Positions 494-51,461 of a DNA stretch of 56,131 bases are shown one piece after another. The stretch's first letter is position 1, and each line of letters begins with the position of its first letter. The stretch comes from Gaiellales bacterium (GTDB lineage: Bacteria > Actinomycetota > Thermoleophilia > Gaiellales > F1-60-MAGs149). The stretch lies in NCBI GenBank assembly GCA_038321545.1, contig JBBQFB010000002.1, positions 1 to 56,131 of the forward strand, in the 5' to 3' direction. The notes under the pieces were generated by a model. It was not told the origin of the DNA, made no database searches, and worked only from the letters and a program-made list of their open reading frames with translations. Position numbers and translations under genes: made by a program.

Positions 494-1747
<1,254 letters not shown>

Positions 1748-2707: not shown

Positions 2708-3630
2708 CGGGCGTGCGGGAGGACCTCGGTCGCGACGAGCTCGACCATCTCCAGGTCGCGGTGGTCGAGGCGGTTCAGGAAGAAGCGCTCGACGCCCGCC
2801 GCGCGCAGCGCTGCGATGCGCTCGATGGCTCGGGCCGGCGTGCCGCTGACGTCCGCCGGGTCGCCTTCGTCGCCCTTCTCGAGCGCCCGCTCGTTCGCGG
2901 TCGCCTGGCGGCGGCGGTAGTCGGCCTCGTCGGTCCCGACGACGAGGCTCGCCATCACGCTCAGCGGCAGCGTGGCAGGATCGCGGTCGATCGCCTCGCA
3001 GGCGGCGTCAAGCCGTTCCCGCGCCGCGCGGGCGATCTCCGGCGTCGCCGTGGAGAGGTTGTAGCTGTCGGCCCACCGAGCCGCCAGCGCGGCGACCTTC
3101 GGCTTGGCGGAGCCGCCGAACACGATCGGCAGGCGGCCGTTCACCGGACGCGGCAGCAGGGTCGCGTCCTCCAGCGTGTAGTGCGCACCGCGGAAGTCGA
3201 GGTTCTCACCGTCGGTGAGCCGCCGGATGATCTCGGCCTGCTCCGCGAGCATCTGCAGGCGCTCGCCGAACGGCGGAAACGGCAGGCCCCACTTGCGGTG
3301 CTCGGTCTCGTGCCAGCCGGTGCCGAGGCCGACCTCGATGCGCCCCCCGGACAGCCCATCGGCCACCAGCGCGAGCTTGGCGAGCACGATCGGCGGCCGG
3401 AACGTGACGGGCGAGACCATGGTGCCGAGCTGGATCCGCTTCGTGACGACGGCCAGCGCGCACAGCACGCCCCACACGTCGAGCGAGCCGCGGCCCTCGG
3501 CTCCGACGACGGAGTAGTAGTGGTCGGACGTGAAGAAGCCGTCGTAGCCGAGACGCTCGGCCGCTTCGGCGTAGGCGAGCCAGTCGGCGACGGTGACGTC
3601 CTCCTGGCCCTCGAGCATGAGGGTGAACAT
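2704..3630 (-). CDS. LLM-class (luciferase-like) F420/flavin-dependent oxidoreductase
   Basis: 308 aa: MFTLMLEG...GYDGFFTSDHYY...GRIEVGLGTGWHETEHRKWGLPF. This is typical of luciferase-like monooxygenase family members of the Rv1855c type. Confidence 0.8.
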   Translation of the reverse strand: MFTLMLEGQEDVTVADWLAYAEAAERLGYDGFFTSDHYYSVVGAEGRGSLDVWGVLCALAVVTKRIQLGTMVSPVTFRPPIVLAKLALVADGLSGGRIEVGLGTGWHETEHRKWGLPFPPFGERLQMLAEQAEIIRRLTDGENLDFRGAHYTLEDATLLPRPVNGRLPIVFGGSAKPKVAALAARWADSYNLSTATPEIARAARERLDAACEAIDRDPATLPLSVMASLVVGTDEADYRRRQATANERALEKGDEGDPADVSGTPARAIERIAALRAAGVERFFLNRLDHRDLEMVELVATEVLPHAR

Positions 3631-7123: not shown

Positions 7124-7163
7124 GGGTCTGACCCTCGTGGCCGGGCGTTTCGGGGTCAGACCC
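7124..7163. promoter_or_regulatory. two copies of an 11-bp palindrome GGGTC(T/A)GACCC (candidate operator, or one 11-bp-stem hairpin)
   Basis: GGGTCTGACCC at 7124-7134 and GGGTCAGACCC at 7153-7163. They sit 55-95 nt upstream of the RidA-MttB operon start (7071, minus strand). Confidence 0.45.
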
Positions 7164-7277
7164 CAGAACGCAATGTGCCGGAAGGCGCGCATCTTGACCG
7201 ACCTGGGCGGGATGGTCTGCGGATCGGGGGAAGCGGGCGGGGTGTGTGACACCTCCGACGGCTACGCTCGCGAAGCG

Positions 7278-10103: not shown

Positions 10104-10709
10104 TCAGTCGTCCTGGCCGTCGTCGCCGCCGTGACCGCTGCCACCGTTGCCGCTGCCACCGTTGCCGTTGCCGCCGCCGCCGCCGCTGCCGCCGCCGTTG
10201 TCGTCACCGGCATCGTGGTCGGCGCCATCGTCGTTGCCGCCGCTGTGGCCGCTGCCGGAGTGATCGTCCGCGGCGTTGTCGTCGCCACCGTGGCCGCTGC
10301 CGGAGTGATCGTCACCGCTGGCGGCGTCGCCGGCCTTGCCATGGCCCGAGTTGTCCTTGGCCTGGTCATCGTCGTTGTCGTCGTTGGCCGTGCCGACGCC
10401 GGTGCAGCGCGGATCGTTGGCGTGCTCGGCCTCGTCGCACGGGCCCGAGACGTCCTCGACCGCGTCGTCATTGGTCGTCGTACCCGGATCCACAGCGGTC
10501 GTCGTGGTCTCGGTCGTGATGACCGGCTCGGTGACCACGGTCGTGGTGCCGGCCATCGTCGTCGTGACCGTGTCGGCGACCGTGGTGGTGGCCGTGATGG
10601 TCTCGGTGGCCGACTTGTCGGCCGACTGCGCGAGCGCGCCGGTGCCGAGGCCCGCAGCAAGCAGGCCGACGAGCAGGGCGACGCCGTATCCGATCTGATT
10701 TCGCTTCAT
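10104..10709 (-). CDS. exported low-complexity protein A (Sec signal; Thr-rich region; Cys pair; Asp/His/Gly/Ser-rich repeats)
   Basis: 201 aa: MKRNQIGYGVALLVGLLAAGLGTGALAQS..., then TTTVADTVTTTMAGTTTVVTEPVITTETTTTAV, then CDEAEHANDPRC, then DDHSGSGHGGDD / DDHSGSGHSGGNDD repeats. It ends GHGGDDGQDD. I recognise no family. Confidence 0.65.
   Translation of the reverse strand: MKRNQIGYGVALLVGLLAAGLGTGALAQSADKSATETITATTTVADTVTTTMAGTTTVVTEPVITTETTTTAVDPGTTTNDDAVEDVSGPCDEAEHANDPRCTGVGTANDDNDDDQAKDNSGHGKAGDAASGDDHSGSGHGGDDNAADDHSGSGHSGGNDDGADHDAGDDNGGGSGGGGGNGNGGSGNGGSGHGGDDGQDD
10245..10313. repeat. 45-bp in-frame tandem repeat inside gene A
   Basis: GTGGCCGCTGCCGGAGTGATCGTC occurs at 10245-10268 and again at 10290-10313. 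The 45-nt period equals 15 codons and encodes the DDHSGSGH units. Confidence 0.85.
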
Positions 10710-10840: not shown

Positions 10841-13258
10841 GTGGATCGCGCGAGGGTCGTCGTCATCGGCGGGGGCATCACCGGAGCCAGCGTCGCGTAC
10901 CACCTCGCGCGAGCTGGCTGCCGTGACGTGCTGCTGCTCGAGAAGGGCGAGCTGACGAGCGGCTCGACCTGCCAGGCGGCGGGTCTCGTCACGCAGTTCA
11001 ACCCGTCGCAGGCGATGATGCGGCTGCGCCGGTACTCGATCGAGCTCTACAACGAACTCGGGGTGTTCGAGACAGTCGGGTCGCTGCGCATCGCGGCCGG
11101 CCCGGAGAGCCTGAAGGAGTTGCAGCGCGGCCTCTCGCGCGCCCGGGGCATCGGCCTCGACGCGCAGCTGCTCGGCGCGCGCGAGGCTCGTGAGCTGATG
11201 CCCGCGGCATCGGCCGACAACCTCTATGGCGCGGTCTGGATGCCCGGCGACGGCTACCTCGACCCGCACGGTGCCACCTATGCGCTGGCCGGGGCGGCGC
11301 GCGACCTCGGCGTGCAGATCCGCACCCAGACGCGCGTCACCGGGATCGAGCTCGGCCCGGCTCGCGCTGTCCGCGCGGTGCACACCGACGCGGGTCCGGT
11401 CGAGTGCGAGATCGTCGTCAATGCCGCCGGCATCTGGGCGCCGCGGGTGTCCGCGATGGCGGGCGTGTTCACGCCGTCGATTCCCGTCGACCACCAGCAC
11501 ATCGCGCTGAAGGCCGTTCCGGGATACGAGTTGCCGCGCGACATGCCGTGCTTCCGCGACACCGACAACCTCGTCTACGGCAAGGCCGAGTCGGGCGGCG
11601 TGCTGTTCGGCGGGTACGAGGCGAACGCGCCCTCGCGCTGGGAGGACGGCGCGCCCTGGGAGCATGGTGGGCGTGCGCTGCCGGCCGACGAGGAACGGTT
11701 CGCGCAGCTGATGGCCGGGGCGGTCCGCCGCTTCCCGTTCCTCGCCGACGCGGGGGTGGCCGGACTCGTCTGCCATCCCGACGCGATGACGCCCGACGCG
11801 AACCCGCTGCTGGGACCGATGCCCGGCGTGCCCGGGTTCTGGCTGGCCGCAGGCCTGTCGCTGAACGGCTTCGGTGGCGCCGGCGGCATCGGCAAGGCGA
11901 TCGCCGAGTGGATCTGTGAGGGCGCCACCGAGGTGGACGTGTCGTCCTACCGCGCGTGGCGGTTCGGCGATACGTACCGCGACGTCGAGTTCGCGGCGGC
12001 CGCGGCGCGCGAGACGTACCGCTACTACTACCGCCTCCGCTACCCGCTCGACGCCGACGAGCTCGGCCGCCCGCAGCGCACGTCGGCGCTGTACGGACGG
12101 CTGCAGGAGCAGGGCGCCGTGTTCGGATCCAAGAACGGGTGGGAGCGCGCCGACTACCTCGAACCGGGTCGGCCGTGGCGCCGGGCCGGAGCCGACCAGC
12201 GCGTGTTCGGCTGGACCGCACCGCCGTACCTCGACCGGCTCCGCGCGGAGCACACGGCCTTCCGCGAGCGGGCCGGCATCATCGACATGACCTCGTTCGG
12301 CAAGACCGCCGTCGAGGGGCCGGGAGCGCTGGCGTTGCTGGAGCGCGCGTGCTGCAACCGCATCGACCGGCCAGTCGGGGCCGTCATCTACACGCAGATG
12401 CTCGATGAGCGCGGCGGGATCCTGGCCGACGTCACCGTCACGCGGCTCGCCGACGACCGCTTCCGCGTCGTCTCCGGCGCCGGCGCGGTGGACGCCGACC
12501 GCGGCTGGCTGGAGCACGCACGACGCCCAGGCGATGCGGCCGTCTCGATCCGCGACGTCTCGAACGACCTCTGCGTGATCGGCATCTGGGGTCCCGCCGC
12601 CCGCGAGATCCTGCGGGCCACAACGGTCGACGACGTGTCAAACGCGGCCTTCGCGTTCCGCACGGCACGCGAGATCTCGGTCGGCCCGGCACCGTTGCTC
12701 GCGCAGCGCATCACGTACGTCGGCGAGCTCGGCTACGAGCTCTACGTCGAGCCGCGCTGGGCCGTCCAGGCCCACGACGTGCTGACGGCGGCCGGTGCCC
12801 GCCACGGCCTGGAGCCCTGTGGCTACCGCTCGCTCGAGGGTCTCCGGATGGAGAAGGGCTACCGCTACTACGGCACGGATCTGACACCCGGCGACTCGCC
12901 CGACGAGGCCGGGCTGTCCTTCTGCGTCGACATGGCGACCGACTTCACGGGCCGCGCGGCGCTGGAAGATCGCCGCGCGCAGCCCGCGACCCGCCGCATC
13001 CGCACGCTGCTCGTCGGCGGCGGCGACTACCTGACCGTCTACGGCGGCGAGGCCGTCCACCACGACGGCGCAGTCGTCGGCCGCCTGCGCAGCGCGGCCT
13101 ACGGGTTCACGGTGCGGCGCAACCTCGCCTACGCCTACCTGCCGGTCGCGCTGGGGCCGGGCGACACGGTCGGCGTCGAGATCTTCGGCGAGCTGGTCGA
13201 CGCCGAGGTGGCTGACGACGTGCAGTACGACCCCGGCAACGAGAGGGTGCGCGCCTGA
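10841..13258 (+). CDS. FAD-dependent amine oxidase fused to a GcvT-type folate-binding aminomethyltransferase domain (dimethylglycine/sarcosine oxidase-dehydrogenase family)
   Basis: 805 aa. N-terminal VVVIGGGITGASVAYHLA dinucleotide fold (DAO domain); C-terminal GCV_T-like half (...FGKTAVEGPGA...GYELY...LRMEKGY...). Confidence 0.88.
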   Translation: MDRARVVVIGGGITGASVAYHLARAGCRDVLLLEKGELTSGSTCQAAGLVTQFNPSQAMMRLRRYSIELYNELGVFETVGSLRIAAGPESLKELQRGLSRARGIGLDAQLLGAREARELMPAASADNLYGAVWMPGDGYLDPHGATYALAGAARDLGVQIRTQTRVTGIELGPARAVRAVHTDAGPVECEIVVNAAGIWAPRVSAMAGVFTPSIPVDHQHIALKAVPGYELPRDMPCFRDTDNLVYGKAESGGVLFGGYEANAPSRWEDGAPWEHGGRALPADEERFAQLMAGAVRRFPFLADAGVAGLVCHPDAMTPDANPLLGPMPGVPGFWLAAGLSLNGFGGAGGIGKAIAEWICEGATEVDVSSYRAWRFGDTYRDVEFAAAAARETYRYYYRLRYPLDADELGRPQRTSALYGRLQEQGAVFGSKNGWERADYLEPGRPWRRAGADQRVFGWTAPPYLDRLRAEHTAFRERAGIIDMTSFGKTAVEGPGALALLERACCNRIDRPVGAVIYTQMLDERGGILADVTVTRLADDRFRVVSGAGAVDADRGWLEHARRPGDAAVSIRDVSNDLCVIGIWGPAAREILRATTVDDVSNAAFAFRTAREISVGPAPLLAQRITYVGELGYELYVEPRWAVQAHDVLTAAGARHGLEPCGYRSLEGLRMEKGYRYYGTDLTPGDSPDEAGLSFCVDMATDFTGRAALEDRRAQPATRRIRTLLVGGGDYLTVYGGEAVHHDGAVVGRLRSAAYGFTVRRNLAYAYLPVALGPGDTVGVEIFGELVDAEVADDVQYDPGNERVRA

Positions 13259-33469: not shown

Positions 33470-34647
33470 TGTTCCTCGACCTTCTGCGCAGGCGGAACCC
33501 GGCGTTCGTCGAGGCGGTGTTCGCGTTGCACCAGGCCGGTCAGATCCCGGCCGGCGCATACGTGCTCGACCTCGACGCGATCGAGGCGAACGCGCGCGCC
33601 CTGCAGACCGAGGCCGATCGGCTCGGGCTCGAGATGTTCGCGATGACGAAGCAGGTCGGCCGCAACCCGGAGCTGATCGACGCCGTGGGGCGGGGCGGCA
33701 TCGACCGCTTCGTCGCCGTCGACATGGCGTGTGCCCGGGCCGTGGTCGCCGCCGGAGCGCGCGTCGGCCATCTCGGCCACCTCGTGCAGGTGCCGTTCGC
33801 CGAGGCTGACCGCGCGGCATCCTACGCGCCCGACGTGTGGACGGTGTTCACGCACGACAAGGCCCGTGAGGCCGCCGCCGCCTCGGCGCGTGCGGGTCGC
33901 ACACAGGGCCTGCTGGCGCGCATCGCCGCGGACGGCGACACGTTCTACCGCAACCAGGAGGGCGGCTTCGACGCTGCCGACATCGTCGAGGTCGCGACCG
34001 CGTTCGAGCAGCTCGAGGGCGCTCGCTTCGCCGGCATCACCACGTTCCCGGCGCTGCTGTACGACGCCACGTCGCGCGACGTGCGGCCGACGCCGAACCT
34101 GGGCACGCTGGAGCGCGCGGCCGAGCGCCTGCGCGACGCGGGGTTCACGCCGGCGATCAACGCGCCGGGCACGACGTCGACCGAGCTCCTGCAGCTGCTC
34201 GCCGACCACGGCGCGACGCAGGTCGAGCCCGGCCACGGGCTCACCGGCACCACCGCTCTGCACCTCGTACGCGACCTGCCCGAGGTGCCGGCGATCGCCT
34301 ACGTGAGCGAGGTCGCGCACCACCACGGCGGCGAGGCCTACGTGTTCGGCAACGGCTTCTACATCGACCCGATCTTCCCCGACTACCCGGTGCAGGCCCT
34401 GGTCGGCCGCGAGGCCGCCTCGGCCACACAGGTCGCTGCCGAGCTGGTGCCGGCGACCATGATCGACTACCACGCGATGCTCGACCAGCCCCGTCCGCTC
34501 GAGACCGGAGAGACCGCCCTGTTCGGATTCCGCGCCCAGATCTTCGTGACCCGGGCGCTCGTCGCGCCCATTTCCGGCGTCGCCTCGGGTTCGCCCAGAT
34601 GCGACGGCGTCTACGCCAGCGACGGACATCCGATCTCGTGGCCGTGA
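33469..34647 (+). CDS. fold type III PLP enzyme, YhfX-like putative amino-acid racemase
   Basis: 392 aa from ATG 33469 (TGATG overlap) within ORF 32815..34647(+): ...FAMTKQVGRNPELI... (lysine in an alanine-racemase-N-like barrel), then a C-terminal beta domain. Confidence 0.68.
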   Translation: MFLDLLRRRNPAFVEAVFALHQAGQIPAGAYVLDLDAIEANARALQTEADRLGLEMFAMTKQVGRNPELIDAVGRGGIDRFVAVDMACARAVVAAGARVGHLGHLVQVPFAEADRAASYAPDVWTVFTHDKAREAAAASARAGRTQGLLARIAADGDTFYRNQEGGFDAADIVEVATAFEQLEGARFAGITTFPALLYDATSRDVRPTPNLGTLERAAERLRDAGFTPAINAPGTTSTELLQLLADHGATQVEPGHGLTGTTALHLVRDLPEVPAIAYVSEVAHHHGGEAYVFGNGFYIDPIFPDYPVQALVGREAASATQVAAELVPATMIDYHAMLDQPRPLETGETALFGFRAQIFVTRALVAPISGVASGSPRCDGVYASDGHPISWP

Positions 34648-35774
34648 CGGGCGAGGGCCCGTTCTCCGGCTACCTGCCGGTGCGGATCCGGTTCGGCGAC
34701 GGCGTCGCCGACGAGCTCCCGCAGATTCTGGCCGACGCCGGGCTGACGAAGCCGTTCGTGGTGCTCGACCCGAACGTCCCCGATCCGCCCGTGCCGGCGG
34801 GAGCGACCGTGTACGAGATCGCGCGGCAGGAGCCGACCTGCGAGAGCGTTGAGGCGTGCGGTGAGGCGCTGAGGGATTCGGGCTGTGACGTGGTCGTCGC
34901 GATCGGCGGCGGCTCGGCGCTCGATACCGCCAAGGGCGCGCGGATCGTGGCGGCCTTCGGCGCGCCGATCAGGCGCTTCTGCTGGCCGGGCGAGCACGTC
35001 GAGCCGATCCCGCCGAGCCCGTACCGCCTGGTCACGATGCCGACCACGTCGGGCACGGGCTCGGAGGTCACCGGCGGCGCCGTCATGTACCACGAGGGCC
35101 ACAAGATCTCCGGCGCGCACCCGAACAACCGTGCCGACTGGGCGTTGGTCGATCCGCTGCTCACGCACGCGCTGCCGCCGCTGCCGACGCTGTACACGGC
35201 GGCCGACGCGCTCGCGCAGGCGCTGGCGGCCGTGGTGGTCGCGGCCCGGACGCCGATCGGCGACGCTGTCGGACTGGAGGCGACGCGCATCTCCGGCCTC
35301 GCGATGCGTGCCGTCGTGCGGCAGCCCGATGCGGCCTCGCGCAACCTGATGGCGCTCGGCTCGATGATGGCCGGGCTCGCGATGAACATCTCGGAGGCCG
35401 GCACCGAGCACGCGCTCGGCGAGCCGCTCGGGACGCTCTACCACCTGCCGCACGGCCTCACGATCGGCCTGGTGCTGGCCGAGTCGATGGACGTCGACCG
35501 GCGCCATGTCCCGGAGCGGTTCGAGCGTATCGCCGACGCGCTGGGAGCGCCGGCCGACGGCACGCGCGACGGCTCGCGGGCGGTGCGGGCCGTGCGGGAG
35601 ATCCTGGCCGAGACGGGCTTCCCGACGATGCGCGAGTCGGGTGTCCGCGACGAGGACGTCGAGCAGCTGGCGGTCCGGTGCCGCGAGGCATGGATCCCGG
35701 TCGAGCCAGGCCCGTGGACGCATGAGGACATCGTCGGCGCCTACCGGGCGGGCCTCGCCATCGAGCGTCGCTAG
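34644..35774 (+). CDS. iron-containing (group III) alcohol dehydrogenase
   Basis: 376 aa from GTG 34644 (GTGA overlap) within ORF 34599..35774(+): GGGSALDTAK, PTTSGTGSE, and a His cluster (...EHALGEPLG...HG...). Confidence 0.85.
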   Translation: MTGEGPFSGYLPVRIRFGDGVADELPQILADAGLTKPFVVLDPNVPDPPVPAGATVYEIARQEPTCESVEACGEALRDSGCDVVVAIGGGSALDTAKGARIVAAFGAPIRRFCWPGEHVEPIPPSPYRLVTMPTTSGTGSEVTGGAVMYHEGHKISGAHPNNRADWALVDPLLTHALPPLPTLYTAADALAQALAAVVVAARTPIGDAVGLEATRISGLAMRAVVRQPDAASRNLMALGSMMAGLAMNISEAGTEHALGEPLGTLYHLPHGLTIGLVLAESMDVDRRHVPERFERIADALGAPADGTRDGSRAVRAVREILAETGFPTMRESGVRDEDVEQLAVRCREAWIPVEPGPWTHEDIVGAYRAGLAIERR

Positions 35775-35832
35775 GGCGCTCGAAGAAGGTCGCCCGCCTC
35801 GAGTGCGCGCGACGTCTGCCGTAGGTCGGGGC

Positions 35833-35982
35833 GCGCCGGGCGGGGCTGCGGTTGGTGCCGCGGATGTTGGATGGGGTCGACGGCTTGCGATGGGTCGGGT
35901 TTGCGCTGCTGCCCGGGGCGTGCGCCAGGCCGGGCATGTCTGCGGTAGGTCGGACGAGCGGCCGGGTCGGATTGCAGACGCA
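35833..35982. repeat. direct repeat, copy A, in a 603-bp non-coding island
   Basis: Blocks shared with copy B: GCGCCGGGCG, GTTGGTGCCGCGGATGTTGGATG (35851-35873), GGCTTGCGATGGGTCG (35882-35897), GTCTGCGGTAGGTCGGACGAGCGGCC (35938-), GCAGACGC (35974-). Confidence 0.8.
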
Positions 35983-36145
35983 AGGCGTGCGCGGGTGCAG
36001 CGGCGGCGGTGTGCAGCTTTCGTCGGTTGCCGTGAAGAGCCGCATGCGCGGAGGCGACAGGGGGACGTCTCAAGTGCCAGGTGGTGACCTCATCCGGATC
36101 CGGGGCGTGGCGGATCGCAGCCTTCGGGCTGAGCTGCTTCGGGCG

Positions 36146-36329
36146 GCGCCGGGCGAGTCTGCGTTTGGTGCCGCGGATTTTGGATGAGGTATTGGGTGCT
36201 GGGAGGAGCGCTGGTGAGGCGTTCGCCGGCTTGCGATGGGTCGCCTCTGCGCCGCAGCCCGGGGCGGGGCGCCGGGCCGGCTGTGTCTGCCGTAGGGCGA
36301 ACGAGCAGCCGCCTCCGATCGCAGACGCC
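36146..36329. repeat. direct repeat, copy B
   Basis: TTTGGTGCCGCGGATTTTGGATG (36164-36186), GGCTTGCGATGGGTCG (36228-36243), GTCTGCCGTAGGGCGAACGAGCAGCC (36285-), GCAGACGC (36321-). The offset to copy A is 313 nt, then 346-347 nt after an insertion of about 34 nt. Confidence 0.8.
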
Positions 36330-36377
36330 CGGCATCCGCTCGTAGACCAGCAGTCACGATCCCGGTATCCTCGGCCG

Positions 36378-37448
36378 ATGAGCCAGGTCCTCCTGATCGG
36401 CGCGGGCGACATGGGCGAGCGGTTCGCCGCCGGCCTCGCGGCCTCCGGCAAGGTGCGCGAGCTGGTGCTCGTCGACGTGGCCGGGTCGGGTCTGCGCGAG
36501 AAGGCCGCGGCGCTCGTTAGCTCGTGCGACGTGCGTGTGCGGGCGGTCGAGGCGGAGCCGCGCGACCAGTACTCGTTCGAGCGGCTCCTCCGCGACCTCG
36601 CTCCCGATCTCGTGATCCAGGCAGCGGCGCTGCAGAGCCCGTGGGCGCTGGTCGGCCGCGACGATCCTGTCGCCCGGGCCCTCAACTCGGCGGGCCTCGC
36701 GATCCGGCTTCCGTTCCAGCTGCCGTGCCTGCTCGCTGCGATGCGCGCGGTGCGCGAGATCGGCTATGCCGGCCCGGTCGCGAACATCTCGCTGCCCGAC
36801 ATCACGCACCCGATCCTTGACCGGCTCGGTCTGACGCCGACCGTCGGCCTCGGCAACGTGTCGATGCTGCTGGTGCGTTCGCGGGCCACGTGGCGGAGCC
36901 GCAACGGCGACGGTCCGGCACCCTTCCTGCGCGTCGTCGGGCACCACAACCACGTGTACGGCGTGATGGGGTCGGTGGCCCCCGCCGATCCCGCCGACGG
37001 CCCGCGGGTGTACGTCGGCGAGGAGGGCTCGCGTGCCGACGACCTCGCGTACGGCGCGCCTCCGATGGCGCCCGGCCTGCGCTACAACCACGTCACCGCT
37101 GCGGCCGCGCTGCCGGTGCTGCTCGCCCTGCTGCCCGACGCCGAGCCGCTGCGCTGGTCGACGCCGGCGCCGTTCGGTCTGCCGGGTGGCTTCCCGGTGC
37201 GCATCGACGCCGGCCAGATCGAGCTGGACCTGCCGCCCGGCGTCGACCTCGACGAGGCGACGGCCTTCTGTCAGCGCATCGCGCACGGAGACGGCGTCGA
37301 CCACATCGACGCCGACGGCACCGTCCACTTCACCGCCGCGGCCCACGAGGCGATGGCGCCGTTCGCACCCGATCTGACCGAGCCGCTGCCGGTCGACGAC
37401 GGCGAGATCGCCCGCCGTGCGAAGCGCATCTTCGAGCTGCTGGCCTAG
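36378..37448 (+). CDS. NAD(P)-binding Rossmann-fold protein, saccharopine-dehydrogenase-like (function unknown)
   Basis: 356 aa from ATG 36378 within ORF 36081..37448(+): MSQVLLIGAGDMGERFAAGL (GxGxxG). TATCCT at 36366-36371 lies 6 nt before the ATG. Confidence 0.6.
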   Translation: MSQVLLIGAGDMGERFAAGLAASGKVRELVLVDVAGSGLREKAAALVSSCDVRVRAVEAEPRDQYSFERLLRDLAPDLVIQAAALQSPWALVGRDDPVARALNSAGLAIRLPFQLPCLLAAMRAVREIGYAGPVANISLPDITHPILDRLGLTPTVGLGNVSMLLVRSRATWRSRNGDGPAPFLRVVGHHNHVYGVMGSVAPADPADGPRVYVGEEGSRADDLAYGAPPMAPGLRYNHVTAAAALPVLLALLPDAEPLRWSTPAPFGLPGGFPVRIDAGQIELDLPPGVDLDEATAFCQRIAHGDGVDHIDADGTVHFTAAAHEAMAPFAPDLTEPLPVDDGEIARRAKRIFELLA

Positions 37449-37450
37449 GC

Positions 37451-38716
37451 TCAGGCCTCGCGCCGCGTGAAGCGGACGCGCATCTCCTTGAGGCCGTTGG
37501 TGAAGTTCGACCGCAGGCGGCGCGGCGGCGCCACCAGCTCGACTCTGTCGACCCGCTTCACGAGCTCCTCGACCATGATCGCGATCTCGAGCCGCGCCAG
37601 GTGGGCCCCGATGCAGAAGTGCGGCCCGCCGCGACCGAACGACGCGTGCTCGTCGCGCTTGCGCGTCAGCACCAACCGGTCGGGCTCCGGAAAGACGTCG
37701 GGATCACGGTTGGCCGCCGCGAACCACACCACGACCCGCTCGCCCCTGGCGATCTTCACGCCGTTCAGCTCGGTGTCCTCGGTGGCCGTCCGGCGGAAGT
37801 GCCAGACGGGCGACGCGAGCCGCAGCAGCTCGTCGATCGCGGTCGGGTAGAGCGTCGGATCGGCCCGCAGCTCGTCCATCGCCCACGGGTTCGCGATCAG
37901 CTGCAACAGCCCCAGCGCCATGCCCTGACGGGTCGTCTCGTTGCCGGCGACGATGAACAGCGCGAAGTTGTTGTCGAGCTCGACCTGCGACAGCGGCTGG
38001 CCGTCGATCTCCATGTTCGCGAGGATCGACAGCACGTCGTCACGCGGGCACGTCTGGCGCTCTGCGATCAGCGGACGGCCGAGCGCGCACAGCTCCGCAG
38101 CGGCCTCCGAGCCGAACGGCTGATACTTGAACGCCTCGGCCTCGGGCGAACCGGCGAGCACGTGGGCGATCTCCGGGTCGGTGTCGATGATCATCCGGTC
38201 GCCCAGCTCGACGAGCCGCCCGAGCAGCTCCTCCGGAACGCCCAGCATGTGCCCGAGCGCCCGGATCGGGATCACCGCGGCGATCTCGTGGACGAACTCG
38301 ACCTCGCCCCGGTCGATCGCGTCGTCCAGCATCTGCCCGGTCAGCTCGCGCAGGAAGTCGGCGTAGTCGGCGACCGCGCGCGGCGTGAAGGACCGGGCGA
38401 ACTGGCGGCGCCACGCCGTGTGACGGGGCGCGTCAGTCTCCATGAAGTTGCGCCGTGCCTCCAGCACGTCGGGCTCCATCCACTCGATCTGCGCCGAGCC
38501 GTTCGCCTCCGACGAGTAGAGCTTTGCGTTCTTCAGCACGTGCACGAGGTCGTCGTACCGCGTGACGCACCAGAACCCCTCGCCCTCCTCGGGGCCGGCG
38601 TGCCAGTAGACGGGTGCCTCGCGCTGAAGCAGGGCGAACACGTCCCACGGCTCGCGTTCGGCGAAGAGGTCCTGGTCGAGCAGATCGACCTGGTCGAGCG
38701 TCAGCTCCGGCGCCAT
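37451..38716 (-). CDS. cytochrome P450
   Basis: FGRGGPHFCIGAHLAR heme-thiolate loop, EELLR (ExxR) and AGNETT I-helix motif. Start taken at ATG 38714-38716; an alternative ATG lies at 38729-38731. Confidence 0.92.
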   Translation of the reverse strand: MAPELTLDQVDLLDQDLFAEREPWDVFALLQREAPVYWHAGPEEGEGFWCVTRYDDLVHVLKNAKLYSSEANGSAQIEWMEPDVLEARRNFMETDAPRHTAWRRQFARSFTPRAVADYADFLRELTGQMLDDAIDRGEVEFVHEIAAVIPIRALGHMLGVPEELLGRLVELGDRMIIDTDPEIAHVLAGSPEAEAFKYQPFGSEAAAELCALGRPLIAERQTCPRDDVLSILANMEIDGQPLSQVELDNNFALFIVAGNETTRQGMALGLLQLIANPWAMDELRADPTLYPTAIDELLRLASPVWHFRRTATEDTELNGVKIARGERVVVWFAAANRDPDVFPEPDRLVLTRKRDEHASFGRGGPHFCIGAHLARLEIAIMVEELVKRVDRVELVAPPRRLRSNFTNGLKEMRVRFTRREA

Positions 38717-45505: not shown

Positions 45506-46162
45506 TCAGGGCTGGATGAGTCCGCGGCGAATGGCGTAGCGCGTGAGTTCGACGCGGTCGCTCATACCGAGCTTGTCGAGAATGTTCTGCCGATGCCGTT
45601 CAACGGTCTTGACGCTGATCCAGAGCAGCGCGGCGATCTCCTTCGACGATTGGGCCTCGGCGATCAGCTTGAGCACCTCCAGCTCGCGCGGCGTCAGGAC
45701 GTCGAACTCCTCCTCGCCACGACCGTGGCGATCGACGTACTCCCGCACCAGCGTCGCCATCGCCGACGAGTAGATGTAGGTGTCTCCGCGCATCGCGGCG
45801 CGGACGGCGTCGACGATGTCGGTGTCGGCGGCTGACTTCAGCACGTAACCGGAAGCGCCGGCCTTCAATGCCTCGAACAGGAACTGTTCGCTGTCATACA
45901 TCGACAGCATCAGGATCCGGACCTCGGGTTTTCGCTTCTGGAGTTCGGCGGCGGCCTGGATGCCCGTCTTGCGAGGCATCGACACGTCCAGGATCGCCAG
46001 GTGGACGTCCTCCGTGAGCGCCTTCTCGACCGCCTCCGCACCATCCGCAGCCTCGGCAACGACCCGCAGGTCGGGCTTGGCGTCGAGCACCTTCTTCAGG
46101 CCGGAGCGCACGATCGAGTGATCGTCGGCGATCAGAATCCGCGTCACGGCGGGGATGGTCAC
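45506..46162 (-). CDS. response regulator, NarL/LuxR family
   Basis: 218 aa: ILIADDHSIVR...LAILDVSMP...ILMLSMY...GASGYVLK, plus a LuxR HTH (LTPRELEVLKLIAEAQSSKEIAALLWISVKTVERH). Confidence 0.93.
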   Translation of the reverse strand: MTIPAVTRILIADDHSIVRSGLKKVLDAKPDLRVVAEAADGAEAVEKALTEDVHLAILDVSMPRKTGIQAAAELQKRKPEVRILMLSMYDSEQFLFEALKAGASGYVLKSAADTDIVDAVRAAMRGDTYIYSSAMATLVREYVDRHGRGEEEFDVLTPRELEVLKLIAEAQSSKEIAALLWISVKTVERHRQNILDKLGMSDRVELTRYAIRRGLIQP

Positions 46163-47145
46163 GGCGAGGCCTTCGCCGGACGCACGACGACGCCCATCGC
46201 CGGGACCTCGAGACGCACCTCGACGCCACCCGGCGAAGCAGACGTGATCGCCAGCGCGGCTCCGATCAGGACCGCCCGCTCACGCATGCCGCGCAGACCT
46301 CCATGCTCTTCGAACGTATCTGCGAGGCCGCACCCGTCGTCGATGACGCGCAACACCAAGCTGCGGGGGCCGCACTCGAGAACCATCCTCACGCGCGTCG
46401 CCCGTGCGTGGCGGGAGATGTTGGTCAGACCCTCCTGCGCGATCCGGTAGACCGCGAGCTCGACATCCGCCTCGAGCTCCGGTAGCGGCCGGGCGAACTC
46501 CCGATCAACGCGGACGCCCGAGGTTCGCGCGAAGCTACGGGTCAGCTCCGTCAGCGCACTCACGAGCCCCAGCTGCTCAAGCATCTCCGGACGCAGCTCG
46601 CTGGAGATGCGGCGCACCTCATGCAGCGCACGGCGCACCGACTGCTTGGCATCGGCGATCTCGCCGCGATGAGCTGGAGCGGTTTCGGCAATCGAGTCGA
46701 GATGCAGCAGGACACCGGTCAAGACCTGCCCCACCTCGTCGTGCAGATCACGGGCGATGCCGACGCGCTCGGCCTCCTGCGCGGCCAGAACACGCCGGCT
46801 CGTCTGTTGACGCTCGGTCTCCAACCGATCGACCATCCGGTTGAACGCGACGATGGCGCGGCCGATCTCGTCGTTCCGAAGCACCTGCAGTCGCTGGCCG
46901 GGGCGGAGGAGATCAACCGCTTCCATTTTCTGCGCGAGACGTCCGAGGGGCCTGAGAGCCCGTCGGAGCAGCACGGCGTTCGCCACCAGTCCGACCGCGA
47001 GCCCCACGACGACGATCAGCGCCTGCCCGCGCCGAATCGGCGCATCGATCTCGACCGGGCTGAACACGAGCAGAAGGGCCAGGACGCCGATGGCCGACCC
47101 GCTCGCGATGAAGGCGCGCCAGAAGACGGACATCGGACGGGACAT
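46159..47145 (-). CDS. sensor histidine kinase, HisKA_3 (NarX/DesK-like) with 2 TM and HAMP
   Basis: ORF 46159..47319(-). H-box IARDLHDEVGQVL and an HATPase_c domain (VIDDGCG...GLRGMRERA). Start set at ATG 47143-47145, before TM1. The ORF continues upstream to 47319, encoding a USP-like fragment of about 58 aa. Confidence 0.85.
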   Translation of the reverse strand: MSRPMSVFWRAFIASGSAIGVLALLLVFSPVEIDAPIRRGQALIVVVGLAVGLVANAVLLRRALRPLGRLAQKMEAVDLLRPGQRLQVLRNDEIGRAIVAFNRMVDRLETERQQTSRRVLAAQEAERVGIARDLHDEVGQVLTGVLLHLDSIAETAPAHRGEIADAKQSVRRALHEVRRISSELRPEMLEQLGLVSALTELTRSFARTSGVRVDREFARPLPELEADVELAVYRIAQEGLTNISRHARATRVRMVLECGPRSLVLRVIDDGCGLADTFEEHGGLRGMRERAVLIGAALAITSASPGGVEVRLEVPAMGVVVRPAKASP

Positions 47146-47413
47146 GGACTTCACGTCGCTGCCCCAGTCGTCCCGTTCATACGGCCATTCTCCCCTACCG
47201 CCGTCGACATGGACGAGCACGAGCCGCATGTCGAGCCGGCAGCTCTGGTCGACTGCCGTCTCAAGCGCATCACGACGTCGATCGTGGTCGTCGACACCGC
47301 AAACCACTGTACGTCGCATCCGGTCTCCCCGACGTTCGTCGGCTCACGATCACACGTCGAGCGACTCGGCGCCATCGGGTCGCGGCCCCATCTCTGCCGG
47401 GACTGGTAGGAGG

Positions 47414-47433
47414 AATGGGGTCGCGACCGGATT
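47414..47433. promoter_or_regulatory. inverted-repeat site 1: AATGGGGTCGCGACCGGATT (candidate NarL-family operator)
   Basis: Lies in the divergent HK/STAS intergenic region, about 100 nt from either ORF. It shares GAATGGGGT...ATTGGA with site 2. Confidence 0.4.
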
Positions 47434-47532
47434 GGAGAGTCGTCCGGTGCCTGCGATGGTTGAAAGAGGAACGATCCATCCCGCGCCGTTGCCGCGTGTG
47501 CCCGCCGGCGCAGCGAGATGAAGGGAGCAACG

Positions 47533-48048
47533 ATGAGCGCACAGGCGACGACGAACACGGCCCGGCACGATCGCGAAGCCGGACTGACTGTGACAGCAGG
47601 TGTTGCGGATGGCCGATGGACCGTTCGTCTGGTCGGCGAACACGATCTGGGGTCGGTGCCCATTCTGGATTCCGGCACATGCGAGATCGTCGCTGGTCTG
47701 CCGGATGTCGTCATCGACCTGAGCGGCGCCACCTTCATCGACTGCGCCATTCTCAACTGGCTCATCCGCACGAACCGCACACGGCTGCAGGCAGGGCTGA
47801 GCGGACTGCGGATTGTCGAAGGCGCGCCTTCAGGAGCAGTCGCACGTGTGCTTGACCTGGCGGGGGGCCGGACGCTGCTGGAGGGCGATCGAGTCGTCGT
47901 TCCCGCCGGTTCGGTGGCACCTCCTGATGCTGCTGTCTTCCAGCGCGCCCTTCGTACGTGGGAGTCTGAAGGTGGTAGCCTCGGCCCGGAGGACCGCGAC
48001 TTGGAGCCCGGCTCCGGCTGCGGTCCTGACCGGCGTACGCGAGAGTGA
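47533..48048 (+). CDS. STAS-domain protein (anti-sigma-factor antagonist family) with a C-terminal extension
   Basis: 171 aa from ATG 47533 (AAGGGAG 6 nt upstream; alternative ATG 47518): ...VVIDLSGATFIDCAILNWLI.... Confidence 0.72.
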   Translation: MSAQATTNTARHDREAGLTVTAGVADGRWTVRLVGEHDLGSVPILDSGTCEIVAGLPDVVIDLSGATFIDCAILNWLIRTNRTRLQAGLSGLRIVEGAPSGAVARVLDLAGGRTLLEGDRVVVPAGSVAPPDAAVFQRALRTWESEGGSLGPEDRDLEPGSGCGPDRRTRE

Positions 48049-48426
48049 GTGACCTTGGACATCCGCGCGAAGCGCGCCTACGAGGCGGCTGAAACGTCGG
48101 ACGGGTATCGCGTCCTGATCGACCGGCTCTGGCCGCGCGGTGTCACCCGACAGCGCGCCGCCCTGGACGAGTGGGACAAGTTGCTCGCCCCGAGCACCGA
48201 GCTTCGAACGTGGTTCGGGCATGACCCCGAACGCTTCGCCGAGTTTCGTCGGCGCTATCGCATCGAGCTCCGCGACCAGAGCCCGCGGCTGGCTGTCCTG
48301 AGACGACGAGCGCGGGAAGGACCGCTGACGCTGGTCTACGCCGCGCGCGATCGCGAGCACAACGGCGCGATCGTGCTCGCCGAAGTCCTTCAGCATGGCC
48401 ATTCCGCGAGGGGCGCACCCGAGTGA
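48049..48426 (+). CDS. DUF488 family protein
   Basis: 125 aa: ...DGYRVLIDRLWPRGV...WDKLLAPSTELRTWFGHDP...FRRRY...LTLVYAARD.... The GTG start directly abuts the STAS stop. Confidence 0.85.
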   Translation: MTLDIRAKRAYEAAETSDGYRVLIDRLWPRGVTRQRAALDEWDKLLAPSTELRTWFGHDPERFAEFRRRYRIELRDQSPRLAVLRRRAREGPLTLVYAARDREHNGAIVLAEVLQHGHSARGAPE

Positions 48427-48496
48427 GCGCTGTCCACCGTGCGGATCTGGCGCCGTGGCGACGTCTGAACTCGGCACGGACTTCGGGGCGAGCTCG

Positions 48497-48516
48497 AATG
48501 GGGTGAGAACCCCATT
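48497..48516. promoter_or_regulatory. inverted-repeat site 2: AATGGGGTGAGAACCCCATT (perfect 8-bp arms)
   Basis: Lies 70 nt after the DUF488 stop and 78 nt before the Gre-paralog ATG. It could act as an operator, a hairpin, or both. Confidence 0.45.
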
Positions 48517-48593
48517 GGATGCGATCCGCTTGCGTGGCACGGTTCCTGCAGGGCGCCGAGAGCGCGACGAAACGCGAGAGAGGGGTTGCGACC

Positions 48594-49058
48594 ATGAGTG
48601 ATATTGTCATGACGCAGAACGGCCTCGAGAACCTGGTACGTGAGCTTGACCGGCTGCAAGGCGAGCGCGACTTCGCCACAGATCGCATCCGGTCCTCGTT
48701 GCAGAATGGCGGCCCGGCGGCCGAGAACGGCGAGTACACCGCCGCGAGCGCCGAGCTGGGCCAGATCGAGCGCCGCATCGGCATCCTCGAGGAGCGGTTC
48801 GCCGCCGCGAGTCTGGCGCAAGCCGAATCCGACGGCGAAGTGGATATCGGCGAGACGGTCCGCGTCAAGGAGCTCGGCACGGGTGTGCTCACGACGTTTC
48901 GGATCGTCGGAGCCGGCGAAAGCGAGCCGGACGACGGCGACATCTCGTACGAGTCTCCGGTCGGCGCCGCGTTGCTCGGGTGTCGTGTCGCCGACATCGT
49001 CGAGGTGCGCATCCCGCGCGGACTGCTTCGACTCGAGATCGTTGCCGTCCACGAGTAG
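48594..49058 (+). CDS. GreA/GreB-family protein (paralog with an altered coiled-coil tip)
   Basis: 154 aa from ATG 48594 within ORF 48519..49058(+). N-terminal coiled coil with tip ...NGGPAAENGEY... (canonical GreA has HGDLxENAEY) and a C-terminal FKBP-like domain (...ISYESPVGAALLG...). Confidence 0.83.
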   Translation: MSDIVMTQNGLENLVRELDRLQGERDFATDRIRSSLQNGGPAAENGEYTAASAELGQIERRIGILEERFAAASLAQAESDGEVDIGETVRVKELGTGVLTTFRIVGAGESEPDDGDISYESPVGAALLGCRVADIVEVRIPRGLLRLEIVAVHE

Positions 49059-49094
49059 GAATGTGGGGCGCAGATGGAGTGACGACCCCATATG
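49058..49094. promoter_or_regulatory. inverted-repeat site 3: GGAATGTGGGG-N16-CCCCATATG
   Basis: Related half-sites with a longer spacer, lying between the Gre-paralog stop and the USP start (49160). Confidence 0.3.
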
Positions 49095-49159
49095 CAAATC
49101 GACCTGCGTGCATGAGCATTGCAGTGTCCACACACCACCGACCGAAGGAAGTGAGCAAG

Positions 49160-49630
49160 GTGAAAACGATCATCCTCCCAGTCGACGGGTCCGAGTCGCT
49201 GGCGGCAGTTTCGACCGCGACGGATCTCGCCGGCAGATTCTCGGCGGGTATCGTCGTCGCGCACGTCACGCGTCTCCAGCCGGGCGCACGGGGCGCGCCC
49301 GTCGCAACCTCTCCCCAGGACCACGAGGCGAAGAAGGCCGCGGCACAGCTCGTCCACGATCTGCGTCAGGCCGGGTTCGACGCGCAGCTCGAGCTCCGTC
49401 GCAGCGCGTTCGTCCACGTCGCGGACGTCATCGCCGACGTCGCGCGCCGTCATCACGCGGTCGCGATTGTTCTCGCAAGCCGGCAACGGTCACCGATCGC
49501 CCGCGCGCTGGCGTCAGGTGTCTCGCAACGCCTGCTGCGCGTCGCGCCGTGCATGGTCGTGACCGTGACGCCGAAGGCCGCCCACGCCGTGCCTGCCGAC
49601 AGCGCCTGGCGCTCCGTCGCCGCGGCCTGA
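49160..49630 (+). CDS. universal stress protein (UspA family)
   Basis: 156 aa from GTG 49160 (AAGGAAG 8 nt upstream) within ORF 48980..49630(+): KTIILPVDGSE...IVVAHV...VADVIADVARRHHAVAIVLASR.... Confidence 0.83.
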   Translation: MKTIILPVDGSESLAAVSTATDLAGRFSAGIVVAHVTRLQPGARGAPVATSPQDHEAKKAAAQLVHDLRQAGFDAQLELRRSAFVHVADVIADVARRHHAVAIVLASRQRSPIARALASGVSQRLLRVAPCMVVTVTPKAAHAVPADSAWRSVAAA

Positions 49631-49639
49631 GGGGTCCTG

Positions 49640-50269
49640 ATGGCTGCCGCACGACGGATCCAGCCAGCCGCAAAGCACACTCGATCGCCGGCGCCATCCA
49701 TCGGTGGGTGGCGCCGGCATGCGAGCGTCGCATGGCCCTATCTCGTCCCGATCGGCGTTGCGAGTGCCGCGGCCGCTACCGGCTGGGCGTCACCGCTGAC
49801 CTTGTCTGCCGTCGCGATCGCGACTGCTATCGGTGCGTCCGTTCGAGCCGGGATCGAATGCGTTCGGATCGACCTCCAGCGCGAGCGGCTCGACGCTTGG
49901 ATCATCACCAGGGGCGGCGAGGTTCCCGTTGCATCCGACCTCAGTGCACGCGTCGAAGAGCTGAGGAGCGAACGCCTGCGTGGAGCGTTGGCGACGACGC
50001 TGTGGAGAATCGCCACAGCGGCGGTCGCGACCGGCGGACCAGGCGCTGCGCGCGCCCGGAGGGCACGACGCGCACTGCAACCGTTCGTGGGTGACCTGCT
50101 CGCGCTTGCCGAGCAGCTGCGAGATATCCAGCATCCGCTCAGCCCGCGCGCCGTCGCGCTGGCGAACCGCCTCGTCAGACACGCTGAGAGCCCCATCTAC
50201 TCCACCAGGCCGGACCCCGCGCTCACGATGGCGCTTCGCGACATACAGCTGGAGCTGTGCCACGCCTAG
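49640..50269 (+). CDS. hypothetical membrane protein (2 predicted TM, helical C-terminal part)
   Basis: 209 aa: WPYLVPIGVASAAAATGWASPLTLSAVAIATAIGASV.... I recognise no family. Third-position GC is coding-like. Confidence 0.5.
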   Translation: MAAARRIQPAAKHTRSPAPSIGGWRRHASVAWPYLVPIGVASAAAATGWASPLTLSAVAIATAIGASVRAGIECVRIDLQRERLDAWIITRGGEVPVASDLSARVEELRSERLRGALATTLWRIATAAVATGGPGAARARRARRALQPFVGDLLALAEQLRDIQHPLSPRAVALANRLVRHAESPIYSTRPDPALTMALRDIQLELCHA

Positions 50270-50297
50270 CGCCTCGACCAGCGGGGAGCATCTCCGC

Positions 50298-51461
50298 CTA
50301 CTTCGACAGTGCGCCGAGGTCGGGCGTGACGACCTTCCAGATCGCGCCGGCCCGGTCTTCCTCGCGCACGCGCCCCCCGGTGAGACGCCAGTCCGTGGCC
50401 ACGCCCTGCAGCCGCGATCCGACCCAGCTGTCCGGCCCGGCCTGGACGCGGTACAGCGCCGAGTCGAGCGAGACGCCGCCGGCCTCGGCCCTCGGGTCGC
50501 CCGCCGTCACGTTGCCGGCCAGCGACAGCCACCACGCGGTCAGGCCCTCGTAGGCCGGTCGCTGCGCGTAGGCGTCCTGGCGGCAGTTGCACGGGTTCAG
50601 CCGCAGGTGCCGATCGCCGATCCGGTAGGTGTCGCTCTCGAGCCGGGTCACCGCGCGCGCCACGCGCATCGCATCGTGCGTGCGGGTGAACAGGTACGCC
50701 GCGGCCGCCAGCGTCCACGACTGCAGGTACGAGCGACCCGACCAGGCGATGTCGCCGTTCGGCGCCTGCAGCGCCGCCATCGCTCGCTCGGCGCACGCCA
50801 GCGGGCGGCCGGCGAGGCGCAGCAGCGCCGTCGTCAGCACGTGGTACGCGAGCGGGAAGCGGGGCGGGTCGCCGATGATGCAGGTGCCATCTGATCCGGC
50901 CACGCGGCGCATCCGGTCGAGCACGCGCTCGGCGTGCCGGCGGAACCGGTCCCAGCGCACGGGCTCGATGCCGGCCCGCCGGATCAGGCGGTATGCCGCG
51001 TAGTCCACGACCTGGGCGTTGCCGAAGTAGGTCGTCCGCTCCTTCCAGCCGTAGGCGCTCGGCTGGTGGCGCGCGAGGCACTTGCGCAGGGCCTTGGACG
51101 TGGCCGCGTAGTGGTGCTGGAGGTGCTGCTGCTGGAGCGACAGGTAGCCGCTCGCGATGCCGAGAATCTGGAACTCGCGGTGGTAGTTCGGGTGCCGGCA
51201 GGCCGCGAGCAGCGAGGTGAGGCCGCGCTTCACGAGTACGGGGCGGCCCGACATGACCTGGGTCGCGCCGAGCATCGCCGCGGCGTACTCGTCGAAGTAC
51301 GGATCGTCGTTGCGTGGGTCGCGACTGGCGTACGTGCCGTTGCGGTCGGGCGTCCACTGCGCGGCGATCTTCGTGCCGAGCGACCGCAGCGTCGCGGCGT
51401 CGGCGGTCGCCGTGCCGACGGACAGCACGATCGCGATCGCCAGCAGCAGCCCCCGCATCAC
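50298..51461 (-). CDS. secreted hypothetical protein
   Basis: 387 aa with signal peptide MMRGLLLAIAIVLSVGTATADA. The composition is non-repetitive, globular and rich in aromatic residues. I recognise no family. Confidence 0.6.
   Translation of the reverse strand: MMRGLLLAIAIVLSVGTATADAATLRSLGTKIAAQWTPDRNGTYASRDPRNDDPYFDEYAAAMLGATQVMSGRPVLVKRGLTSLLAACRHPNYHREFQILGIASGYLSLQQQHLQHHYAATSKALRKCLARHQPSAYGWKERTTYFGNAQVVDYAAYRLIRRAGIEPVRWDRFRRHAERVLDRMRRVAGSDGTCIIGDPPRFPLAYHVLTTALLRLAGRPLACAERAMAALQAPNGDIAWSGRSYLQSWTLAAAAYLFTRTHDAMRVARAVTRLESDTYRIGDRHLRLNPCNCRQDAYAQRPAYEGLTAWWLSLAGNVTAGDPRAEAGGVSLDSALYRVQAGPDSWVGSRLQGVATDWRLTGGRVREEDRAGAIWKVVTPDLGALSK

Follow-up and report, generated by a model that had tools for sequence, protein, structure and literature searches.

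A modular, non-coding repeat family of the Gaiellaceae occupies the gap beside an inverted dehydrogenase gene

Pfam assignments in the window, by which we denote the whole 56,131-nt stretch of a Gaiellales bacterium contig (JBBQFB010000002.1) that was analysed, place a gene encoding an iron-containing alcohol dehydrogenase (Fe-ADH; 34599-35774) on the same strand as a gene for a saccharopine-dehydrogenase-like NAD(P) protein (SDH-like; 36378-37448, plus strand), with a cytochrome P450 gene (37451-38731) on the minus strand beyond them. Homologues of the SDH-like protein that align over its full coverage are 356 aa long, which sets its start at ATG 36378 and not at an upstream GTG (36081); close homologues show 85-91% identity, and one member of the cluster is labelled Gaiellaceae. 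A -10-like hexamer, TATCCT, is found at 36366-36371, 6 nt before this ATG. It had been read as the gene's own leaderless-type promoter; a TANNNT pattern is kept at this position in all the relatives compared for it (L012-L016).

The 603 bp between the two dehydrogenase genes (35775-36377) had been described as by far the largest gap of the window. The gap itself is real, but the superlative needs qualification, given that the interval at about 47.2-50.3 kb is also devoid of clear coding signal and of Pfam matches. This second interval (47200-50300) covers approximately 3 kb with a lowered G+C content of 64-69%, a weak or shifting third-position periodicity and ORFs without Pfam matches; it adjoins a HisKA_3 kinase/LuxR response-regulator pair (45506-47319, minus strand) and could be foreign or decayed DNA. 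Elsewhere in the window, Tandem Repeats Finder reported a repeat with a period of 45 nt at 10212-10312 (2.1 copies, 75% matches).

Third-position G+C along the island (35775-36360) ranges from 0.6 to 0.88 and follows no stable phase, versus 0.9-1.0 in both flanking genes, and the ORFs that cross it yielded no Pfam match. The absence of third-position periodicity and of domain matches agrees with the initial annotation, which had considered the region non-coding and built from an imperfect direct duplication. A repeat search of the island outlined three direct-repeat blocks, pairing 35826-35877 with 36139-36190 (87% identity, spacing 313), 35870-35935 with 36216-36281 (76% identity, spacing 346) and 35912-35992 with 36259-36339 (75% identity, spacing 347). 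The blocks are collinear, and the step in spacing from 313 to 346/347 denotes an indel of 33-34 nt. BLASTN of the island against the window returned self-matches (E 2e-23 and 5e-12) and no further copy within the 56 kb. The duplication is therefore genuine, and so are the finer features ascribed to it. The 20-mer GGTGCCGCGGATKTTGGATG, one of the shared blocks, occurs twice in the island and reached two occurrences in none of the shuffles. The GTCTGCSGTAGG box is indeed present three times (35814, 35938 and 36285), against an expectation of 0.53 and with 2 of 100 shuffles attaining that count, and each of the two copies originally delimited contains one GTCTGC-N30-GCAGAC inverted pair. The third box, GTCTGCCGTAGGTCGG at 35814-35829, falls within a left junction (35775-35825, plus strand) that follows the Fe-ADH stop codon (35772-35774) and has no counterpart in relatives; homology with the closest complete relative (L012) stops at 35779.

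The best-matching public run, a sediment metagenome that holds 72% of the sampled window words (hereafter X1), provided a different delimitation of the repeated unit. Logan contigs of this run and of three other metagenomes (X2, X4 and X5) were mapped onto the island region, with assembler word depth taken as the measure of depth. In X1, depth was 1000-3000 over 35936-36265 versus approximately 10-30 in the flanks, placing the unit at about 100-200 times the flanks, with a peak of 3250. The high-depth span is contiguous and approximately 350 bp long, running from the end of the first annotated copy (copy A), through what had been considered a spacer, into the first half of the second (copy B). 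Shoulders of intermediate depth were observed at 35914-35935 and 36266-36331, values of 85-330 at 36261-36347, and low depth at 35826-35913 (30-70 versus 10 in the flank) and 36288-36339, both outside the canonical unit defined below. The same multi-copy pattern was repeated in X2, X4 and X5.

Around 500 short X1 contigs match the unit at 80-99% identity, with no indel variants among them; 76 do so at 99% or above, 101 at 95-99%, 226 at 90-95% and 97 below 90%. Contigs from all four metagenomes also present back-joints, in which approximately 36265-36328 is followed by approximately 35937-36014 with 7-32 letters in between. The resulting periods of 344-349 match the 346/347 observed in the window, indicating that other copies also lie head to tail. 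One X1 contig of 1340 nt that carries such a back-joint matches at only approximately 82% and would appear to hold several diverged units. On a rough calculation, a 347-nt unit covered to a depth of about 2500 accounts for some 0.9 Mb out of a total of 3228 Mb for X1, or about 2% of the contribution of a 4-Mb genome at depth 10. Depth sums over all the family-carrying genomes in the sample, and the corresponding copy number would lie, again roughly, between about 10 units per genome, if copies are spread over all the actinobacteria in the sample, and about 250, if all of them belong to the organism of the window. Long-read-style contigs carry one or two units per locus, which makes many small clusters likelier than a few giant arrays.

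The repeat unit is thus a tandem element of approximately 347 bp, best exemplified by window positions 35914-36287, and the two copies annotated initially are overlapping parts of 1.5 head-to-tail units. The unit length of about 150-185 bp assigned to them has to be abandoned in view of the metagenome depth, and the most conserved part of the element turns out to be their former spacer. With 1.5 diverged units, the window was not called as a tandem array by Tandem Repeats Finder. The array begins with a diverged partial unit (35826-35913, plus strand) made up of modules a' and b'. It corresponds to the 3' part of a preceding unit, devoid of module i, and matches 36139-36190 at 87% and 36216-36260 at 76% identity. 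The canonical full unit follows (35914-36287, plus strand; period approximately 347 bp), with its modules in the order c, core, M2, a, i, b; the single-copy member found in another genome (L024) covers this same span. Module c contains the inverted pair at 35938-35979, and modules a, i (36190-36222) and b occupy 36139-36260 (plus strand), the first half of copy B. A diverged start of the next unit, module c' (36261-36347, plus strand), is 75% identical to 35912-35992, carries the second inverted pair at 36285-36326 and is truncated at the border of an inverted gene segment. Module i had been interpreted as a 34-nt insertion in copy B. It occurs in every other family member and is missing only from copy A, indicating that copy A carries a deletion and copy B no insertion.

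The conserved core (35983-36091, plus strand) is common to all five copies fetched, and an alignment of the five cores revealed two blocks, 36038-36073 (AGCCGCAWGCGCGGAGGCGACAGGKGGACRTCTCAA) and 36078-36089, that are identical or nearly so in all of them. A profile built on the cores returned them with nhmmer E-values of 1e-49 to 1e-54. The X1 depth peak lies in this core, and no variant attains 4% across about 250 contigs at 36029-36044 or 36046-36061, versus variation of 20-60% at nearby positions. X1 variants at 35998-36108 and 36181-36204 form runs spaced 3 nt whose phase shifts along the unit, and part of this zone is a (GGC)n-like run.

Alignment of the copies further resolves the family into two composite segments: E1, comprising the end of module c, the core and M2, to which the copies in L023 and L024 add an extra module of approximately 110 nt, and E2, comprising modules a, i and b and the start of module c. 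In these terms, the window reads E2' E1 E2 E1' (truncated), L015 reads E2 E1 E2 and onwards, L023 reads E1 E2 E1 and L024 reads E1 E2. The extra module (L023 10297-10420 and 10782-10900; L024 4300-4400) contains a 13-bp hairpin (GTCCGATTCGCTG...CAGCGAATCGGAC) that, on the strand opposite to the window plus strand, is followed by the T-run ATTTTTGG and is terminator-like in appearance. The boxes noted earlier are variants of a 12-mer motif, GTCTGCGATCGG, which occurs six times with up to two mismatches in approximately 410 nt of the island (35938+, 35968-, 36111-, 36157+, 36315- and 36336-, with strand as signed), compared with about 0.24 occurrences expected at the window-wide rate. The 12-mers stand as inverted pairs 18-34 nt apart.

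Eleven syntenic loci (L012-L022) were compared to establish how the site is occupied in relatives. The closest complete relative, a 4.17-Mb contig (L012) whose flanks match those of the window at 87% identity, presents an unrelated 242-nt spacer without the repeat (11072-11313). The site adjoining the SDH-like gene consists of a 4-nt spacer in L016 (9354-9357) and of 692 nt that include an ORF of 208 aa in L013 (11039-11730), and in L017-L022 it is bordered by another neighbour, a LacI-type regulator accompanied by a sugar ABC transporter cluster (L017 11072-11099). The site 3' of the dehydrogenase gene is hence hypervariable and coincides with a synteny break among close relatives. An intergenic pair of GGGTCWGACCC palindromes approximately 15 nt apart, seen both in the window (7124-7165) and in the L012 spacer (11225-11265), may represent a second, REP-like family of this lineage; the same spacer also contains TTGTCTGAC-TTTA-GTCAGACAA (11106-11130).

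Among these loci the repeat is present only in L015, directly after the SDH-like stop codon, where it shares 74% identity with the unit of the window and forms two units 95% alike with a period of 375, the contig ending inside the array. Two further genomic loci were identified by tracing to DNA two ORFs that had matched the translated core in protein searches. The first of these loci, on a 201-kb long-read-style contig (L023), contains two units 83% alike with a period of 485 in a different gene context; the second (L024) contains a single unit, placed between unrelated genes in approximately 715 nt of non-coding DNA. The family is thus interspersed, with copies that adjoin the dehydrogenase gene in the window and in L015 and lie in other gene contexts in L023 and L024, and head-to-tail periods were recorded in the window (346/347), in metagenome contigs (344-349), in L015 (375) and in L023 (485). 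The repeat runs in the direction of the neighbouring genes in the window and is antisense to its neighbours in L024. When the profile of the five cores was applied to 288 kb of fetched DNA, it detected just these five, all of them copies that had been targeted. Searches with the exact 21-mer GKTTGGTGCCGCGGATKTTGG, which lies in a variable module, yielded chance matches of 21-42 nt only, six against one genome per species and five against JGI metagenome contigs, and no match was returned for a core 30-mer against viral contigs or by blastn against plasmids.

The gene segment downstream of the island has itself been rearranged. A short spacer (36348-36377, plus strand) that does not belong to the repeat precedes the SDH-like gene, and homology to relatives resumes within it, at 36358-36366. 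From there, the SDH-like segment (36358-37448, plus strand), which includes its 17-nt upstream spacer, stands in opposite orientation to that of the 11 related loci. The ancestral order, conserved in 11 of 11 relatives, has the P450 gene and, 17-19 nt further on, the SDH-like gene in the same orientation, and in L012, L013 and L016 the Fe-ADH gene converges on the SDH-like gene. The two inversion breakpoints map 0-2 nt beyond the stop codons of the P450 gene and of the SDH-like gene, respectively, and the second junction, GGCCTAGGCTCAGGCC at 37441-37456, is a near-palindrome. A 155-nt contig from another run (X15) spans this junction (37435-37570) with three mismatches, and runs X13, X14 and X16 show the ancestral junctions. 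An assembly artefact was considered and rejected: exact X1 contigs extend from the Fe-ADH gene into the repeat up to 35964, and a 126-nt contig spans 36300-36425, from the repeat into the start of the SDH-like gene, covering both ends of the island, with X15 covering the second junction; this support is confined to those ends and that junction, the link between the two halves of the island running through the repeated core. The repeat has the same orientation with respect to the SDH-like gene in the window, where it lies upstream, and in L015, where it lies downstream, and a single inversion of an L015-like ancestor consequently cannot produce the arrangement in the window. It is most simply explained if the repeat arrived or expanded independently at the two sites, or if two events took place.

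These data show that the island consists of a partial, a full and a truncated unit, head to tail, of a non-coding modular repeat family of the Gaiellaceae, whose units of approximately 350-500 bp are each built from a conserved core, some 110 nt in length, and variable modules bearing inverted 12-mer pairs. Of the three candidate identities put forward for the island, the one naming a MITE-like or REP-like genomic repeat comes nearest, being right about a multi-copy family and off in the anatomy of the unit. Several known repeat systems offer points of comparison. BOX elements of Streptococcus pneumoniae are modular intergenic repeats of the form boxA-boxB(n)-boxC. Like them, the family described here is non-coding, intergenic and multi-copy, spans a few hundred bp, encodes no transposase and is composed of modules that may be present, absent or repeated. 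It differs in the absence of sequence similarity, in host phylum, in having whole units arranged head to tail (periods 313-485 bp) and in having one 110-nt core that is much more conserved than the rest.

REP/BIME (REPIN) elements, which have RAYT transposases, share with it a short motif in alternating orientation, intergenic clustering, high copy number and a GTAG beside the motif (GTCTGCCGTAGG). However, the 12-mer forms no stable palindromic hairpin and the units are ten times longer than REP. In place of the 20-40 nt REP/BIME palindrome there are GTCTGC/GCAGAC arms of 6 bp with loops of approximately 30 nt, and the second inverted pair contains mismatches, both in the window copy and in most family members (GCAGCC/GTCTGC). 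A scan covering part of the window's ORFs revealed no RAYT gene, nor was one noticed beside any other copy. The family resembles MITEs in size range, multi-copy and non-coding nature and variable presence at orthologous sites, and the 12-mers near the unit ends constitute imperfect inverted repeats (9/12), but its copies lie head to tail and not as single insertions, and have no known parent insertion sequence. Comparison with L012, L013, L014 and L016 revealed neither a target-site duplication nor a clean pair of empty and filled sites, owing to the junction being unrelated in those loci, and no transposase was found. Mycobacterial MIRUs, of 46-101 bp and often in frame with the stop and start codons of flanking genes, are likewise actinobacterial and intergenic, lie head to tail between genes of the same orientation and vary in copy number between strains; unlike them, the units described here span 350-500 bp and are not in frame. 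A diversity-generating retroelement was discarded, as copies differ by all kinds of substitution and by indels and no reverse transcriptase is annotated in the syntenic loci, and the architecture does not fit a CRISPR array or an integron attC site.

Taken together, we favour, as a somewhat better than even proposition, a modular interspersed and tandem repeat of the BOX/BIME kind, probably selfish or structural in nature. Such a repeat would behave as selfish or structural DNA whose units multiply locally, through unequal recombination or slippage between neighbours, a process that would keep the units of one array alike as arrays diverge from lineage to lineage. Further loci may be seeded by recombination, or by a putative trans-acting recombinase or transposase recognising the invariant core and the inverted 12-mers. 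At the present locus, the repeat would have arrived or expanded after the split from the closest sequenced relative, at a rearrangement-prone junction, and would now separate the Fe-ADH operon from a flipped dehydrogenase gene endowed with its own predicted leaderless-type promoter. This explanation would imply no function specific to the locus.

Within the core, a block of approximately 36 nt remains invariant amid neighbours that vary by 30-60%, which counts against this explanation and points to functional constraint rather than pure junk. A more specific proposal, which we regard as speculative and on balance unlikely, is that the 110-nt core is the functional heart of a new kind of non-autonomous mobile or recombinogenic element of the Gaiellales, acting as a recombination site or a guide-like RNA, that spreads as modular units of 350-500 bp and drives precise gene-scale rearrangements such as the exact dehydrogenase flip.

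Another reading of the core, similarly doubtful, would make the units tandem genes for a structured small RNA, encoded on the plus strand and acting in trans, with a long and imperfect core hairpin at approximately 35986-36034. The conservation of the core, far above that of the rest of the unit, is compatible with this proposal, and so is the predicted hairpin itself: one-sided changes in it keep G-U pairs on the plus strand and give A-C mismatches on the minus strand, and 92% of cells are paired on the plus strand, a value reached by only 3 of 500 shuffles. The structure was nonetheless derived from the same five sequences, in which two-sided changes number 5; shuffles give 3.2, and the figure of 5 is attained by 76 out of 500 of them. 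The RNAalifold covariation term for the five cores is positive, that is, a penalty (+1.0 on the plus strand and +5.5 on the minus strand), and folding z-scores for the unit reach just -1.8 and -2.4 on the plus and minus strands, respectively. A 13-bp long-range helix of the window copy (36046-36058 with 36240-36252) is broken by the family-majority CC>GG variant. Orientation with respect to neighbouring genes differs between loci, simple scans detected no promoter-like or terminator-like site, and no RNA run was found to contain the sequence. No Rfam family was matched across the window at gathering thresholds (cmscan), and relaxing the search to E-values of up to 10 over 35500-36700 produced only three chance matches, all outside the repeat. 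With no Rfam match, non-significant covariation and no RNA runs found, the earlier suggestion of a duplicated small-RNA gene receives no support. Hammerhead-like motifs (GUGAUGA, GUC) were also inspected and set aside, since by eye they are wrongly spaced and Rfam returned no match, and by eye only partial G-quadruplex motifs could be discerned.

The enrichment and paired inverted arrangement of the GTCTGCGATCGG 12-mers, 18-34 nt apart, together with a CCGC-N4-GCGG motif with a tolerated central change inside the invariant block of approximately 36 nt, could also point to an array of protein-binding sites, another of the identities put forward earlier, for a regulator, a nucleoid protein or a recombinase, insulating or regulating the flanking genes. 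Yet the family adjoins unrelated genes at different loci, and close relatives in which these genes are retained lack it at the corresponding junction, which argues against a gene-specific regulatory role, and no candidate binding protein was found; we deem such an array quite improbable.

Far less probable still is that the island constitutes the degenerate remnant of a tandem repeat that once encoded protein, in other words a pseudogene of a repetitive protein. The idea draws on a T-poor minus strand nearly without stop codons and on the spacing of variable positions in X1, which come in runs three apart (for instance 35998/36001/36004/36007/36010 and 36045...36108). The phase of these runs, however, switches without indels, and not every one of the periods (313, 347, 375 and 485) is divisible by 3, both of which make coding unlikely. 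A 1-nt indel separates the window and L015 cores, third-position G+C stays at 0.6-0.88 compared with more than 0.9 in real genes, and Pfam matches are absent. When the stop-free minus-strand translation (192 aa) was searched against 1.84 billion representative proteins, it yielded six weak matches (E 3e-7 to 1e-3), all six sharing VITCHLRRPPVASALAA.HGIRRGLH...APAHAF, the translation of the core, and one carrying the peptide twice. These matches are ORFs running across other copies of the same core. Against 5.8 billion proteins, a concatenated six-frame translation of the island returned no match, and a core-peptide profile returned a single one, of 91 aa on an 883-nt contig.

That the island is a neutral local duplication without relatives, a null hypothesis congruent with the single locus in the 56-kb window and with first database scans that gave chance matches only, is effectively eliminated by hundreds of variant contigs in four metagenomes and by homologous units at other loci in other genomes (L015, L023 and L024).

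A literature search on this repeat family returned nothing relevant. The family is previously undescribed, and its hosts are uncultured actinobacteria of soil and sediment. As an object it is of an ordinary kind, an uncharacterised bacterial repeat family, with a sharply conserved core that may prove to be a new RNA or a new site of recombination. The Gaiellales are abundant and almost uncultured, and a multi-copy repeat that breaks short-read assembly, as seen in Logan contigs that shatter to approximately 100 nt across it, helps explain why their metagenome-derived genomes are fragmented. The repeat also marks spots at which gene order has changed between close relatives.
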